From IMG/VR virus record IMGVR_UViG_3300005739_000025: a DNA stretch of 64,000 nucleotides. The stretch is one strand, 5' to 3'. Below are positions 1,634 to 21,244 of the stretch, piece after piece. The notes beneath the pieces are model-generated. The model searched no databases, had not been told where the DNA came from, and worked only from the letters and a program-made list of their open reading frames with translations. The stretch comes from a virus. Lineage: Duplodnaviria; Caudoviricetes. The translations under genes and the position numbers were made by a program. Each line of letters opens with the position of its first letter. Position 1 is the stretch's first letter.

Positions 1634-2284
1634 ATGAGTAAAAAGAAACTTCAGCATGCTAATCACAATATAGTTCATACATCAGAAGAAATAGAAGAGT
1701 TAATAACCAAAGGAGCCAAAGCATACGAAAATTATTTAGACGCTTTAGGGTTCGACTGGCGTAATGATCCTAATAGTGCGGATACCCCACATAGGGTAGC
1801 TAAAGCGTTTGTAACAGATCTGGCTATGGGTTGTTATACTGAACCACCAAAAGTGACGGCATTTGATAATGTTGATAGTTATGATGGCATGGTTTGCCAG
1901 AACAATATTAAGGTTGTTTCTTTATGCTCTCATCACCATGCACCTTTTATGGGTGTTGCTCATGTTGCTTATATCCCCTCTAAAAGTGGTAAAGTTATCG
2001 GACTATCGAAACTTAATCGAATTGTTGATTGGTTTGCCCGTCGTCCACAAGTTCAAGAAAATCTCACAATGCAGATTCATCAATATATTGATCAGGTTTG
2101 TGAGAAAAATAATGGGGTTGCAGTACTTATCGAAGCCAATCACACCTGCTGCTCTAATAGAGGTATTAAACATGATTCTACTATGAGAACAGCTAGAATG
2201 TCTGGTTCTTTTTTAGATAATAAAGATCAATCTAGAGCTGAGTTTTATAAGTTTGTAGAGTTTGCTCAAACCTGTAAGGGTTAA
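1634..2284 (+). CDS. folE: GTP cyclohydrolase I (FolE)
   Basis: Motifs [19 protein letters not shown] (Zn Cys/His), [20 protein letters not shown] and [11 protein letters not shown]. Confidence 0.95.
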
Positions 2285-4270: not shown

Positions 4271-4687
4271 TTACTCTTTAACAAGATTTTTTGGCGGCTT
4301 ACCAATTCTAACGTTAATTATACCGTTATAGTAGTTTTCATTTAATAAAACATCTCTACTTATTTGTTCTTTAATTTCCTCGTAGCTTAATTCCCATTTA
4401 GAACCACAAGTCTTTAATATTAAAAACTCAAAATTGTCTTTGCCGCACTTCTTAATGTCTTCATTTAAGTCATTTGAAGAGCCTGTATAAAATTTCCAGT
4501 CTGATTCTTTACTATCAATTCTATTTCTAAGTTTACCCTTTAAGGGTTTTCTTTTAATTTTACGTCTGCACTGTTTTTTACCGATGTAGGTTTTATTATT
4601 TGTAAGATTTTTTATACTGTAAATAAAACCAAAGCAGTCTTCGGTGAAGTCTAACCCATCTTTAATTTTCCAGTGCCCTAAGTCCAC
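4271..4687 (-). CDS. free-standing GIY-YIG family endonuclease-like protein
   Basis: GFIYSIKNLTNNKTYIGKK motif, ESDWKFYTGSS, and C-terminal YYN. Confidence 0.8.
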   Translation of the reverse strand: MDLGHWKIKDGLDFTEDCFGFIYSIKNLTNNKTYIGKKQCRRKIKRKPLKGKLRNRIDSKESDWKFYTGSSNDLNEDIKKCGKDNFEFLILKTCGSKWELSYEEIKEQISRDVLLNENYYNGIINVRIGKPPKNLVKE

Positions 4688-16294: not shown

Positions 16295-16313
16295 TTCGAA
16301 ACCAAATACGCGG

Positions 16314-16348
16314 CCGCGTAGTCGGGTAACTGGCTACGCGGTTTTTTT
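16314..16348 (+). terminator. Rho-independent terminator after uvsX
   Basis: Stem CCGCGTAGTC / GGCTACGCGG (one G-U pair), 8-nt loop, then T7. Confidence 0.85.
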
Positions 16349-16382: not shown

Positions 16383-17036
16383 ATGGTTACCTTAATTTCA
16401 GTAACAGAACCTAACGAATATCTAAAAAAGGAAGGTATTAAAACAGCTGAAGATTTAGTTGTTTTTGTCGCTAGGGTGTCGAATCCAAAAAATCAATTTA
16501 ACAGTAAAACAGGTCCAAAACTTTTATCCTATCTGATACAACATAAACATTGGAGCCCGTTTGAACATGTTTCTGCTACTTTAGAGATTAAAACTTCTAG
16601 AGCAATTGCAGCTCAACTATTAAGACATAGATCATTTACATTTCAAGAATTTAGTCAGCGCTACTCTTCAACAACTAGTTTAGAAAAATTAGAATGGAGA
16701 GAACAAGGTAAAACAAATAGACAGGTTGGTGATTCAGAAATAACTCTATCTGTTGTAGATCAAGGTATGGTCGATGCTGCGCAAAAAGCTTGTATCAAAA
16801 CATATGAAACCTTAATTGCAAATGGTATAGCTAAAGAATGTGCTAGAATGATTCTACCTCTTAATACCACATCTATAATATACATGACAGGAACGTTGAG
16901 ATCATGGATTCATTATATACAATTAAGAAACACAAAGGATACACAAAAAGAACATAGAGATATAGCTTTTAGCGTTAAGACTATACTTAAGACACAATTT
17001 CCAATAACGTTTGAAGTGTTGAAAGAATTAAAATAG
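16383..17036 (+). CDS. thyX: flavin-dependent thymidylate synthase ThyX
   Basis: HWSPFE, RAIAAQLLRHRSFTFQEFSQRY, ECARMILP. Confidence 0.95.
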   Translation: MVTLISVTEPNEYLKKEGIKTAEDLVVFVARVSNPKNQFNSKTGPKLLSYLIQHKHWSPFEHVSATLEIKTSRAIAAQLLRHRSFTFQEFSQRYSSTTSLEKLEWREQGKTNRQVGDSEITLSVVDQGMVDAAQKACIKTYETLIANGIAKECARMILPLNTTSIIYMTGTLRSWIHYIQLRNTKDTQKEHRDIAFSVKTILKTQFPITFEVLKELK

Positions 17037-17050
17037 ATATATAATAAGTT

Positions 17051-17773
17051 ATGAGCAAAAAGAAAATAGTAGTAACGGTTTCTGGGGGTATGGATAGCGC
17101 GGTACTACTTTATATGGCAGTACAAAAAGTCGGTAAAAATAATGTCTACCCTTTGTTTTTTAATTACAACCAACGTCATATACGAGAGTTGGGATGTGCC
17201 CGGGGGTTAGTAATGAATGTTTTAGATAAAGAACTTAAAGAGATTGACGTTTCTTTTATTCGAGAATTAGCTCCTACTAGCTCACTCACAAATGATGATA
17301 TTGAGACACCAAAAGTGGATGAAGTAATGGGTGAAGCACAACCAAAATCATACGTACCATTTAGAAACTTAATGTTTTTAAGTATCTGTTGCTCATATGC
17401 GGAGAGTGTAGATGCCAGTGAGGTGTGGTATGGTGCAACACAAATAGATAGCTTAGCTGGTTACTGGGATGCGGAAGAAAACTTTGTTAAAAAAGTTAAC
17501 CAAGTGGTAAAGTTAAATAGAGAAAAGAAAATTAAAGTTGTCGCGCCATTGCTCAGTGCAAATAAATCAGATATTGTAATGAAAGGTGTTGAGTTGGGAG
17601 TGCCTTTTGATATGACCTATACCTGTTATTCAGGGGATATGCCCGCAGATGCAACATCTGCGTCTTCCTCTTTAAGAATAAAGGGATTTTTAATGGCAGG
17701 TTATATCGATCCTATGCCCTACAAACAAGATTTAACTGAGATCTGGCAAAAGCATAATTGCAAAATAATATAA
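17051..17773 (+). CDS. queC: QueC-family ATP pyrophosphatase (7-cyano-7-deazaguanine synthase-like) with degenerate Zn site
   Basis: SGGMDS PP-loop, FNYNQRH, SSLT, YVPFRN, APL..NKSDIV, TCY. The zinc ligands read C-x7-D-x2-S-x2-S. Confidence 0.85.
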   Translation: MSKKKIVVTVSGGMDSAVLLYMAVQKVGKNNVYPLFFNYNQRHIRELGCARGLVMNVLDKELKEIDVSFIRELAPTSSLTNDDIETPKVDEVMGEAQPKSYVPFRNLMFLSICCSYAESVDASEVWYGATQIDSLAGYWDAEENFVKKVNQVVKLNREKKIKVVAPLLSANKSDIVMKGVELGVPFDMTYTCYSGDMPADATSASSSLRIKGFLMAGYIDPMPYKQDLTEIWQKHNCKII

Positions 17774-17777
17774 TACT

Positions 17778-18368
17778 ATGGAACGTTCTGAATTACAAAC
17801 AAGACTTAAAAATGAAACTAAAGGTATACATGATCTGGCAGAAAATATGACAGTAATGAAATCTTTTATTGATGGATCATTTAAGCTAAGACATCTTCTA
17901 CAATATTTGATTAATGTAAAGCCTCTTTATGATGTTGTTGAACAAAGATTATTACAACCTTATATTTTAAAAAATTCTGATTTAAAAAGAACCGATAAAA
18001 TACAACAGGATATTGACTCTATAGTAAAACATTTTAGATCTATTGGTGATGATTTGGGACATATGCTTACACCTTTAGAGGTTACAGATCTGTGGGTAGG
18101 TTGGTGTTGGAGTAAACCAAAAGATTTATTGAAGGCCGATCTATATACGCGTTGGCTAGCAGATATGTACGGAGGTCGCATTATGGCTAAAAATATGGGG
18201 ATATTTGCTGAGTCTTTAAAATTTAATGATACAGCTAAAGCTATAGAAGATGTTAGGTCGATAATAGATGAGAAAAATAAAGATGTAGACAATAACGATA
18301 TTATTGAAGAGACCATGAAAGTTTTTGAATATCATACTGATTTGTTTACTATTTTAGAAAATGAATAG
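17778..18368 (+). CDS. hemO: heme oxygenase
   Basis: LKNETKGIHDLAE (proximal His helix), RTDKIQQD, and YTRWLADMYGG (distal helix, compare YTRYLGDLSGG). Confidence 0.85.
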   Translation: MERSELQTRLKNETKGIHDLAENMTVMKSFIDGSFKLRHLLQYLINVKPLYDVVEQRLLQPYILKNSDLKRTDKIQQDIDSIVKHFRSIGDDLGHMLTPLEVTDLWVGWCWSKPKDLLKADLYTRWLADMYGGRIMAKNMGIFAESLKFNDTAKAIEDVRSIIDEKNKDVDNNDIIEETMKVFEYHTDLFTILENE

Positions 18369-19023
18369 TCACTTAATAATACAAAATTATTTTAACGAAC
18401 TATCATCACTCTTTAAAGAGTATTATGGAGATCCAGACGCTAAAACACTACCATTTCAAAAAGATATACACTCTTGGTTAAATTATTTTTATAAATCTCC
18501 TATTTTTAGACATATTCATTTAGAATATTATAAAACAGATAAAATTTGTGTACTCCACTCTAATATATTTCCAAACCCATTAGTAGATTTACCAATTATG
18601 GGGTTTGATCTTATAGCTTTGGGTGATAAAATTTCGGGATTATTCTTCGACTTTACCCCTACGGTAACTGAATCTCATGCTCTAAGACATAGTTTAGAGA
18701 ATTTAAATGAAAGATATAAATCTAAAAAACGCCTATTACCTGAATGGGCAACCTTTTTTAGTGATGATTTTTATTGCGTTACTCCTGAACCTAATGAAAT
18801 GGATAGGATCTTTAAAGATATAAAATTTTATATTAAACATTATCTTGAATTTGGTAGAGGTAAATTAGAAGAATATACATTTAATATAGCTATACAAAAC
18901 GGTTATTGTAAGGGTCAACAAAAAAATGATAAAACATTTAAAGCGCTTTCTGCGGAAATAGGAAGTAAAGATGCTAAAAAATTTCTTACTAAATATCTTT
19001 TTCCGAAAATTGCAATTAAGTAA
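18361..19023 (+). CDS. pcyA: ferredoxin-dependent bilin reductase (PcyA/PcyX family)
   Basis: FRHIHLE, VLHSNIFP..DLPIMGFD, FFDFTP, LPEWATFFS, YCKGQQKNDKT..L...G and YLFP; follows the heme oxygenase with an 8-nt overlap. Confidence 0.85.
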   Translation: MNSHLIIQNYFNELSSLFKEYYGDPDAKTLPFQKDIHSWLNYFYKSPIFRHIHLEYYKTDKICVLHSNIFPNPLVDLPIMGFDLIALGDKISGLFFDFTPTVTESHALRHSLENLNERYKSKKRLLPEWATFFSDDFYCVTPEPNEMDRIFKDIKFYIKHYLEFGRGKLEEYTFNIAIQNGYCKGQQKNDKTFKALSAEIGSKDAKKFLTKYLFPKIAIK

Positions 19024-19043
19024 ACGTACTATAAAATACATAG

Positions 19044-19700
19044 ATGTGTGGTATATATGGAGCAAATGATAGAGAAAAATTTCTTACTCTACAAAAATTA
19101 AATACAGAACGAGGAGATTTTTGCGAAAGTAGCGTATTAGTCACAAAAGACGGGTTTGAAATACATAAGGTTCCAAAAAAAGCTAAAAAAAATTATAAGT
19201 TTCCAAAAAGAAAAAAATTTGATTTGTATCTAGGACACTCCCAGGCCCCAACTTCCACTAAAAGATTATTTAACCCAGAAACATCTCATCCATTTACTGT
19301 TGAAAATTGGGTAGTAGCTCATAATGGAGTATTAACAAATTACAAAGAGCTTGTTAATCAATTTCAAAGACCATACAACAACCCGGTAGATAGCAGTATT
19401 ATACCCTATCTTATGTACAAAATGAGTGAACTTTCATCTAACGAAATAGAAATTATAGTTAATTCGTTAGAGTTTTTAAAAGGTACGTTTGGTGTTTGGA
19501 TACATAACGCATTTACAGGTAACACATTTTTAGCTAAATGTGGGGTAACATTATTTGCAGATATATATGATAATTGTTTTAGCTCAGTAAGTTACAAGTT
19601 TTTTGACCCTTTAGAGGAAGGAACACTATACCAACTAACAAGTGAAGGAATCACTAGTGTCGCAACATTTGATTGTGATAGTCCGTTCTTTACTGTTTAG
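19044..19700 (+). CDS. class II (Ntn) glutamine amidotransferase-like protein
   Basis: N-terminal MCGIYG, GHS, HPF, HNGVLTN, VDS, GTF. Confidence 0.85.
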   Translation: MCGIYGANDREKFLTLQKLNTERGDFCESSVLVTKDGFEIHKVPKKAKKNYKFPKRKKFDLYLGHSQAPTSTKRLFNPETSHPFTVENWVVAHNGVLTNYKELVNQFQRPYNNPVDSSIIPYLMYKMSELSSNEIEIIVNSLEFLKGTFGVWIHNAFTGNTFLAKCGVTLFADIYDNCFSSVSYKFFDPLEEGTLYQLTSEGITSVATFDCDSPFFTV

Positions 19701-20548
19701 TCCCAAGGCATATCACCTTTAGATCTACCAATATAAACACCACCGTAAGGGTCTTTATCAAAATCTTCCACGTCTTCAGGGTCATAACCAGAAGTTACCT
19801 CACCAGTACCTTCACCTTCATTTTCCTCTTTCTCTTTTGTCTCTTCTGGATCTACAGCTTCGTAGTTACCACCGTCGGTTTTTTGTAAATAACCTGTTCG
19901 AATAAGAGAAGAAATGTTTATTTTTGCTTCTGACTCTTCCATATCAGGGTTATCCCCTATCATCATTCTAGTTAATTCTTCTCTAGAATATCCACCTTCA
20001 CCTAAAATTCTTTCCCAGAATCTTTTCATTACTGGATCATCTATACCCGCACCAGCGTTTGTTTGTTTTGATGTTTCTGACGATGGCTCTTCTTTGTCTA
20101 GCTTATCTGCATTTTTTAAAGTGTAATTTGTTAACTTTTCTACACCTTTTTGTGATGGTTTTTTATCCATAACAACCCCATCTCTTTCGTCTTTAAGTAC
20201 CCCTGCTGCTTTTAAAGCATTGTATAATACTCTAGCTGAGTATTTTGAATTAGTGTTATTGATAGATGGTTTAATTTCTCTAATAACTGGAGCCAACTCC
20301 ATTTCATAAAAGTCCTTATATAGTTTTGGGGACTTTCCACCCTTAGCTTTAAATGTGGATAAGAATTTTGAAAATACTTGCGATGTTTCTTCAGGTGTTA
20401 AGTCGTATTTACCTTTAGCTAATTCTGGAAACTCAGCTTTTACCTCTTCCCCTGATCCTGAATAGTCACCCATCTCTACAGGTGCTAGTTCGTTTAATAC
20501 GTTTTTCTTTTTATAAGCTTCAAAAATTAGATATGAGTCTTTGTCCAT
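19697..20548 (-). CDS. late protein with capsid-targeting-like leader and possible winged-helix domains
   Basis: TATAAATA 5 nt upstream; leader ...LIFEAYKKKNVLNE; helix-helix-helix-beta hairpin pattern (NISSLIRTGYLQKTDGGNYEAV). Confidence 0.5.
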   Translation of the reverse strand: MDKDSYLIFEAYKKKNVLNELAPVEMGDYSGSGEEVKAEFPELAKGKYDLTPEETSQVFSKFLSTFKAKGGKSPKLYKDFYEMELAPVIREIKPSINNTNSKYSARVLYNALKAAGVLKDERDGVVMDKKPSQKGVEKLTNYTLKNADKLDKEEPSSETSKQTNAGAGIDDPVMKRFWERILGEGGYSREELTRMMIGDNPDMEESEAKINISSLIRTGYLQKTDGGNYEAVDPEETKEKEENEGEGTGEVTSGYDPEDVEDFDKDPYGGVYIGRSKGDMPWD

Positions 20549-20584: not shown

Positions 20585-21244
20585 ATGGATACGGTAATTT
20601 GTAGTTTAACGAGAAATAAGGATAGATCCAATACAATATTATGGAGATCGTTGCAGAAAATAGGCGAGATTAAAATTAATATAGAAGATAACAACACTAA
20701 AAAAGGTTTAAGTCAGTACTATAATGAGTGTATCGAAAAATTTAAAGATAGTGATTGTATAGTTTTCGTTCATGATGATGTTGATATTATTAGTTCTGAT
20801 CTTTTATATCAACTCCGGGAAGGTTTTAAACGTTTTGATGTTATTGGTGTCGCTGGGTGTGTTAATCCTAAAATTTTAGATAGAAATTTATGGCATTGGA
20901 TGGCCGGAGATAGATCAAACTGCCGTGGAATAGCCGGGCACCCATATAGTGATTCTGAATTTTTCGTAACATCTTTCGGTCCTACACCTTCTAGAGTAGT
21001 AATTATAGATGGAGTTTTAATGGCAATTAAAACTAAAAAGATTTACAATTCCGGAATACGATTTGACGAACAGTTTAGATTTCATCATTATGATATAGAT
21101 TTTAGCTTGACCTGTAACACTAAAAAAGCTAAAATAGGGGTCTGGCCAATACTTATAAACCACCAATCACCTGGGCTAAAGGATTTTGACACAACATGGA
21201 ACGAAAGTAATCAAAAATTTATAGACAAATGGAAAAACAAATAG
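20585..21244 (+). CDS. GT-A fold glycosyltransferase (family 2-like)
   Basis: YNECI, FVHDDV (DxD-like), GVAG, IDGVLMA, FHHYDIDFSL, HQSPG. Confidence 0.8.
   Translation: MDTVICSLTRNKDRSNTILWRSLQKIGEIKINIEDNNTKKGLSQYYNECIEKFKDSDCIVFVHDDVDIISSDLLYQLREGFKRFDVIGVAGCVNPKILDRNLWHWMAGDRSNCRGIAGHPYSDSEFFVTSFGPTPSRVVIIDGVLMAIKTKKIYNSGIRFDEQFRFHHYDIDFSLTCNTKKAKIGVWPILINHQSPGLKDFDTTWNESNQKFIDKWKNK

Follow-up and report, generated by a model that had tools for sequence, protein, structure and literature searches.

Systems that place 7-deazaguanines in phage DNA differ in the base they install and in the partners of their QueC-family enzyme. In Flavobacterium phage immuto_2-6A, every G is replaced by fdPreQ1, a formylated preQ1 (7-aminomethyl-7-deazaguanine) derivative (PMC10516641), and in phage 9g a class-II glutamine amidotransferase (GATase) fused to QueC yields the archaeosine-type product dG+ (PMC6884629). 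Comparable Gat-QueC fusions occur in Alteromonas phage R7M and in Crenarchaeota. The DNA of Campylobacter phage CP220 carries dADG, and its divergent QueC is the proposed synthase of the amide ADG (7-amido-7-deazaguanine). Members of the QueC family can also act on proteins, Cap9 being protein-modifying despite a near-canonical QueC core (PMC13329287). An unrelated gene set, the hemO-pcyX bilin cassette, is known from phage metagenomes (PMC11480375). Here, we describe a locus within a stretch of 64,000 nucleotides (the window) from IMG/VR virus record IMGVR_UViG_3300005739_000025, in which a zinc-less member of the 7-cyano-7-deazaguanine (preQ0) synthase family, queC* (17051..17773, + strand, 240 aa), is followed by a heme oxygenase gene, hemO, a bilin reductase gene and a stand-alone class-II (N-terminal nucleophile, Ntn) GATase gene (19044..19700, + strand, 218 aa). 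queC* and the GATase gene most likely belong to a pathway that replaces guanine in DNA with a 7-deazaguanine, the two genes between them being an inserted mobile cassette.

Deazaguanine DNA-modification genes in the genome and its relatives

A pattern scan of IMG/VR with zinc-less QueC motifs returned 315 loci, and the best 80 of these were analysed. All 80 share the gene order PolB, small open reading frame (ORF), UvsX, QueC*, (insert), GATase, (insert), glycosyltransferase, DnaB and DHH. The GATase lies downstream of QueC* in 73 loci, and the remaining seven end less than 1.6 kb past QueC*. In 27 loci, QueC* and the GATase lie exactly 24 nt apart, and in a further 43 they are parted by 0.85-2.7 kb of non-bilin DNA; in the relatives read in detail, the insert is a reverse-strand ORF, and searches of Pfam and PHROG gave no family match for these ORFs. 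The hemO-pcyX genes are found between QueC* and GATase only in three loci and one truncated locus, all from the relatives closest to this phage (QueC* identity of 68% or more). The pair thus stands without intervening bilin genes in 70 of the 73 informative relatives, which argues against the original prediction that the four genes form one new pathway.

The source genome, a 148.8-kb record of an uncultured T4-like myophage with an estimated completeness of about 70%, holds further genes of a DpdA3-type system. The gene for the first enzyme of the 7-deazaguanine pathway, folE (GTP cyclohydrolase I), is inside the window at 1634..2284 (+ strand), 15 kb upstream of queC*. Outside the window, a DpdA3 homologue (G000:40396-41205, E 1.7e-9) was found by using as query CGPG_00065 of Cellulophaga phage phiST, which is a DpdA3 (PMC10516641). 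Its identity is 53% with the protein annotated as DNA guanine transglycosylase in immuto_2-6A (DpdA3) and 43% with the CP220 homologue. The Pfam TGT family (PF01702) matched nothing in this genome or in 15 relatives, a failure of sensitivity, as the distant DpdA3 needed the phiST query. DpdA3 opens a run of five genes (G000:C1:40396-43621, equivalent to L107:4397-7622), the other four being, in order, a formyltransferase resembling DpdN (42% identity with that of immuto_2-6A, E 3e-46), a 118-aa ORF, a nucleoside monophosphate (NMP) kinase-like gene (AAA_28) and a bimodular QueF (QueF_N 75 bits, QueF 39.9 bits). The order of DpdA3, DpdN, NMP-kinase-like gene and QueF is the same in immuto_2-6A, and DNA substituted with fdPreQ1 is therefore predicted.

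The other preQ0 synthesis genes come from the relatives: 12 out of 15 encode QueD, next to which lies a divergent QueE, and neither gene adjoins queC*. The divergent QueE was detected by the NCBIfam QueE models, with scores far under their cut-offs, and was not picked up by a Pfam Radical_SAM search. Each of three complete relatives has exactly one QueC, the zinc-less form, together with FolE, QueD, QueF, DpdA3 and the GATase. Taken with the DpdA3, DpdN-like protein, QueF and FolE of the source genome, the QueD and QueE of the relatives complete a set of DpdA3 plus preQ0/preQ1 synthesis genes. In the nearest long relative, the divergent QueE (260 aa), PhoH, QueD and a NUDIX hydrolase are clustered (L091:5287-8013; G009:75286-78012), and this QueD, at 205 aa, is longer than usual.

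A separate link to the pathway is seen in the relative L006, where the gene for a DpdN orthologue (39% identity, E 4e-35) begins before the GATase gene has ended and overlaps its stop codon, a connection between the GATase and deazaguanine genes that does not depend on QueC*. In such more distant relatives, the genes directly after the GATase are variable (L006:7684-8565, L007:7669-8482), a DpdN orthologue or a GNAT acetyltransferase being followed by a PF18909 dGTP-diphosphohydrolase-like protein. The lineages may differ in how they decorate the deazaguanine, or may deplete dGTP.

In the route that we propose, FolE, QueD and QueE would produce 7-carboxy-7-deazaguanine (CDG), and the zinc-less QueC* would turn CDG into preQ0 with ATP. 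The amide nitrogen for this step would most likely be drawn from glutamine by the adjacent glutaminase, a coupling that we infer. QueF would reduce preQ0 to preQ1, DpdA3 would insert the base into DNA, and QueF, DpdA3 and DpdN together would yield formylated preQ1 in DNA. In one sublineage, hemO and a PcyA/PcyX-type reductase would have been inserted into the short queC*/GATase spacer. QueC* is most likely the preQ0 synthase of the DNA-modification pathway, and the GATase is probably the glutamine-dependent ammonia donor for QueC*, because the QueC step is the only one in the pathway that requires nitrogen. More tentatively, and with the balance tipping slightly against it, the zinc-less QueC* and the Arg-less Ntn glutaminase could form a two-subunit, glutamine-dependent synthase of preQ0 (or of ADG). 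Such an enzyme would need neither zinc nor free ammonia for the QueC step, an undescribed route, and the pair would be a shared trait of hundreds of aquatic T4-like phages, all uncultured, in whose DNA a formylated preQ1 derivative probably takes the place of every guanine.

An altered QueC and a neighbouring stand-alone glutaminase

QueC* is a clear member of its family (PF06508, E 8.5e-50), and its TIGR00364 score of 157.9 bits is above the curated equivalog cut-off of 150.3. Aligned with Bacillus subtilis QueC (3BL5), it has replaced three of the four zinc cysteines (the partner stretch of this alignment is TCYSGDMPADATSASSSLR), so that the C(x)8CxxCxxC zinc-binding motif is missing and C192 is the sole Cys left. 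The zinc-less tail TYTCYSG...DAxSxSSxLR..GF...DPxxYKQ is conserved in 120/120 best homologues, down to about 55% identity. Other parts of the canonical QueC signature (PMC13329287) are retained: the SGGxDS PP-loop is present as VSGGMDSA (residues 10-17, invariant in the family alignment), and the YxQxHxxE and VPxRN motifs appear as YNQRHIRE and VPFRN. The substrate motif YPDC is invariantly YWDA in the QueC* family, with Tyr and Asp kept, Pro changed to Trp and Cys to Ala. Y35, R99, Y131 and Y189 are essential in Escherichia coli QueC (PMC13329287), and since their counterparts Y39, R105, Y138 and Y193 do not vary among 22 diverse members of the family, QueC* looks catalytically competent.

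The GATase gives GATase_6/7 matches under the curated cut-offs, and its AlphaFold model (predicted local distance difference test score, pLDDT, 93) superposes on the glutaminase domains of GlmS and PurF with template modelling (TM) scores of 0.75-0.79. The protein has the Ntn alpha-beta-beta-alpha fold and the class-II catalytic set, Cys2, His93-Asn94-Gly95 and Asp116 being invariant; Cys2 would be Cys1 of the mature protein, the Ntn nucleophile. In this class, Asn-Gly forms the oxyanion hole and the Asp holds the amino group of glutamine. In the family motif GH[TSVA]QAPTS, Gln67 is invariant and Arg74 nearly so. Gln67 stands where PurF, GlmS and the R7M Gat-QueC carry Arg, and the conserved Arg that binds the glutamine alpha-carboxylate (GlmS Arg73/PurF Arg73) is therefore missing; Arg74 may substitute for it. 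Both peculiarities pointed out in the original prediction, a QueC lacking its zinc site and GHSQ in place of the usual Arg, are accordingly fixed features of the two families. No homologues of the GATase were found in cultured phages by tblastn at E 1e-5, and none in CP220, immuto_2-6A or phiST.

Several points weigh against the pathway proposed above. The entire replication module is syntenic among the relatives, so adjacency alone is weak evidence for a coupling between QueC* and the GATase; the predicted QueC*-GATase complex, which scores 0.27 and so falls under the 0.32 mark, speaks neither for nor against it. The GATase has lost the Arg that would bind the glutamine carboxylate, so that glutamine is a putative substrate, and immuto_2-6A does without any such enzyme. 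In QueC*, the zinc site is gone and YPDC has lost its Pro and its Cys, and the chemistry of the enzyme might be altered, for example ending at the amide ADG. Finally, tblastn found no QueD, QueE or PhoH in the 148.8-kb record, which ends before their syntenic position.

Among the described systems, immuto_2-6A shares the most with this phage. Besides the operon order and protein identities given above, its QueC is likewise without zinc cysteines and has the same C-terminal SASS..R..F..DPxPY motif; a zinc-less QueC therefore appears compatible with a pathway that requires preQ0, although the host could supply preQ0. The present lineage differs in being T4-like, with family-B polymerase, UvsX, gp32 and gp41-type genes, and in the position of queC*, which belongs to the replication module and lies well away from the dpdA3 operon. 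Its QueC* comes with a dedicated Ntn glutaminase, whereas immuto_2-6A has none, and the YPDC motif kept by immuto QueC is YWDA here. CP220, also T4-like and with a DpdA3 and a divergent QueC, is further away: its QueC keeps four zinc cysteines and FPDC and has lost the Gln of YxQxH, a thymidylate kinase gene directly follows DpdA3, and the 25 kb examined contain no gene annotated as DpdN or QueF. The CP220-type ADG synthase was accordingly rejected as the closest match, as it retains the zinc site and alters other motifs.

A DpdA3-type deazaguanine system and a hemO-pcyX cassette are both already known kinds. In the literature searched, we found no description of a zinc-less QueC paired with a stand-alone, Arg-less Ntn glutaminase, of a T4-like replication module, from a large uncultured clade, that houses such a pair, or of a bilin cassette inserted between queC* and a GATase gene. 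For this widespread clade of uncultured T4-like aquatic phages, a DpdA3-type, probably complete, substitution of DNA with a 7-deazaguanine is predicted, with consequences for sequencing bias, for the evasion of restriction and for inferring the host range of the clade. The enzymology raises the question of whether preQ0 is still made by a zinc-less QueC paired with a glutaminase that lacks the canonical Arg. The pairing may be posed as a possible adaptation to low-ammonium or low-zinc waters.

The inserted bilin cassette and the rival explanations

The two genes that part queC* from the GATase gene are a heme oxygenase gene, hemO (17778..18368, + strand, 196 aa), the first of the cassette, and the gene for a PcyA/PcyX-type ferredoxin-dependent bilin reductase (FDBR; 18361..19023, + strand, 220 aa). 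HemO matches PF01126 with E 2.4e-10 (41 bits against a cut-off of 23). The reductase matches PF05996 (E 3.7e-25, above the cut-off), has PcyA as its top NCBIfam match, and matches the PcyA structures and PcyX 5OWG; the invariant residues of its family alignment include H51, H53, E55 and D83. PcyX enzymes yield PEB and PcyA enzymes PCB, Asp55 being the residue diagnostic of PcyX. An adjacent heme oxygenase and PcyA/PcyX-family FDBR make up the phage hemO-FDBR cassette, and, as in such cassettes, the heme oxygenase gene of this uncultured aquatic phage comes directly before that of a PcyA-like four-electron FDBR, the genes being mobile and found in several contexts, with no phycobilisome genes in view. 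A phage hemO-pcyX (or pcyA) bilin cassette of auxiliary metabolic genes (AMGs) was reportedly described by Ledermann et al. in 2016. The cassette studied here differs in its insertion site between queC* and the GATase gene, which is particular to this sublineage, and in that no alaS was seen beside it.

The bilin genes move independently of QueC* and the GATase, because the reductase occurs apart from them in another genome of the clade and in other phages. In the complete 230-kb relative G001, 56 kb separate the reductase from QueC*, and the genome yielded no heme oxygenase; this lone PcyA/PcyX-type reductase (L108:5083-5760; G001:211082-211759) has as neighbours a PEP-CTERM-motif protein and an AAA ATPase. 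In other phage contigs, PcyX homologues of 46-58% identity have as neighbours glycosyltransferase, PQ-loop, phosphoribosyltransferase (PRTase)/NUDIX and ribosomal protein S21 genes, and neither QueC nor a GATase was found within 6 kb of them. In two such metagenome contigs (L116 and L119), where the reductase adjoins PQ-loop, PRTase, NUDIX and ribosomal protein S21 genes, a 252-aa ORF upstream of the reductase gave no Pfam match and might be a divergent heme oxygenase. The landing site has also received other genes. thyX is itself a variable insert, present in only 2 of the 80 surveyed loci, and an AAA ATPase sits in the queC* region of one relative; the stretch of the replication module from uvsX to the glycosyltransferase gene is therefore a hot spot for inserted genes. 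The nesting is accordingly read as an AMG cassette that landed in a plastic spot of the replication module, and an amidated-bilin pathway is set aside.

How the pair acts has been framed in three other ways. One is that QueC* and the GATase behave like Gat-QueC and convert preQ0 to the amidine G+, with dG+ replacing the preQ1 derivative or occurring alongside it. There are points of resemblance: in both systems, a phage pathway for deazaguanine in DNA involves a class-II GATase alongside a PP-loop enzyme of the QueC family, the fused form gives dG+ in phage 9g (PMC6884629), the GATase is downstream of QueC* in 73/73 informative loci, and its weak similarity to the Gat domain of the R7M protein (27% identity over 116 aa, pairwise E 9e-9) includes the A-x-P-T-T/S segment. 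The details point elsewhere, which leaves an archaeosine-type product unlikely. The fusions carry an N-terminal GAT and a C-terminal QueC in one polypeptide, whereas here QueC precedes GAT in two genes, which inserts often separate (24 nt to 2.7 kb apart in relatives), and R7M retains the Arg (GNVR) that is Gln in the present GATase. The zinc-less QueC* is closer to stand-alone QueC: it scores 157 bits against the QueCs of KVP40-like vibriophages and about 90 bits against the solved structures of B. subtilis QueC and 2PG3, as opposed to 67 bits against the QueC domain of Gat-QueC. Gat-QueC goes with DpdA1, while the partners here are DpdA3, QueF and DpdN; QueF and the DpdN-like formyltransferase need preQ0/preQ1, yet only one QueC is present, and their presence therefore indicates preQ0/preQ1 chemistry, and a preQ1 derivative as the expected product, rather than archaeosine. 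The first of the original suggestions, in which a bilin cassette interrupts a split Gat-QueC that serves to put deazaguanine into DNA, is broadly upheld: a deazaguanine QueC-amidotransferase pair interrupted in this way accords with the survey and with the DpdA3, DpdN-like, QueF and FolE genes, but a literal split of Gat-QueC is rejected on the reversed gene order and the affinity to stand-alone QueC.

The suggestion that the four genes make an amidated or protein-ligated bilin, QueC* adenylating a bilin propionate and the GATase amidating it or ligating it to protein, fares far worse and is now very improbable. It drew on the tight packing and probable co-transcription of the genes, on the altered QueC pocket (YPDC changed to YWDA, zinc site lost) and on the unusual Gln at the GATase Arg position. 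The gene order counters it, since the same variants of QueC* and the GATase occur in the 70 relatives whose pair has no bilin genes in between, as well as in complete genomes lacking any heme oxygenase. The reductase is found elsewhere without the pair, QueC* keeps all residues essential for deazaguanine chemistry (PMC13329287), and the partners QueF, DpdA3 and DpdN are present. That the pair additionally amidates a bilin in the bilin-carrying sublineage is no more credible. Still more remote is a protein ligase of the Cap9/QatC type, in which the N-terminus of the GATase, or that of another protein, would receive a carboxy-deazaguanine from QueC*, for example in counter-defence. Cap9 modifies a protein with a near-canonical QueC core (PMC13329287), and QueC* weakly matches the Cap9 structure 9NTO (E 2.4e-10). 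The N-terminus of the mature GATase, however, would be the Cys1 nucleophile, whose free amine is required for catalysis, which speaks against the target named in this third and unsupported suggestion; in addition, the operon partners of the Qat and CBASS systems (QatA, QatB, QatD or TatD-like genes, or a CD-NTase) are absent among the annotated neighbours, and the zinc motif kept in Cap9 and QatC is missing from QueC*. A pathway with QueF also needs a preQ0 synthase, for which QueC* is the sole candidate.

A probable transcription unit and its surrounding genes

The coordinates of the four ORFs given in the original prediction are exact, and the genes are co-oriented and tightly packed, being separated from queC* to the GATase gene by 4 nt, an 8-nt overlap (hemO/reductase) and 20 nt. 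The lack of a visible terminator among them was likewise borne out: no convincing intrinsic terminator was found between the queC*, hemO, reductase and GATase genes, the weak matches at 17644 and 18731 lying within coding sequence and having poor T-tails. The sole strong terminator across 14.8-21.3 kb is a hairpin in the uvsX/thyX interval (16312..16343, + strand), a GC-rich 14-bp stem followed by a T-run, which is likely the upstream end of the unit. As the first gene past this terminator, thyX (16383..17036, + strand), which encodes a flavin-dependent thymidylate synthase by family match, is probably the first gene of a transcription unit shared with queC*. The bilin cassette is probably co-transcribed with its neighbours but, on the present reading, functionally independent of them. 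Downstream, the unit is bounded by a convergent ORF of 283 aa (19697..20548, - strand), which overlaps the GATase stop codon and gave no family match in Pfam or PHROG searches.

The locus is embedded in a T4-type replication and recombination module that includes UvsY, a UvsW-like helicase, a gp55-like sigma factor and a gp47/46-like nuclease, together with a family-B polymerase, UvsX, a gp41-type DnaB helicase and a DHH phosphoesterase; the source phage is an uncultured T4-like aquatic phage. Upstream of the window start, about 13 kb (G000:135500-148400) is missing from the otherwise collinear relative G009, as judged by tblastx synteny. In the folE-uvsY interval, a SegE-like GIY-YIG homing endonuclease (4271-4687, - strand; PF19835, E 1.4e-30) lies among small reverse-strand ORFs. 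Almost every relative has, as the window does at 20585-21244, a family-2-like glycosyltransferase (PF13712) located after the GATase and before the DnaB-type helicase.

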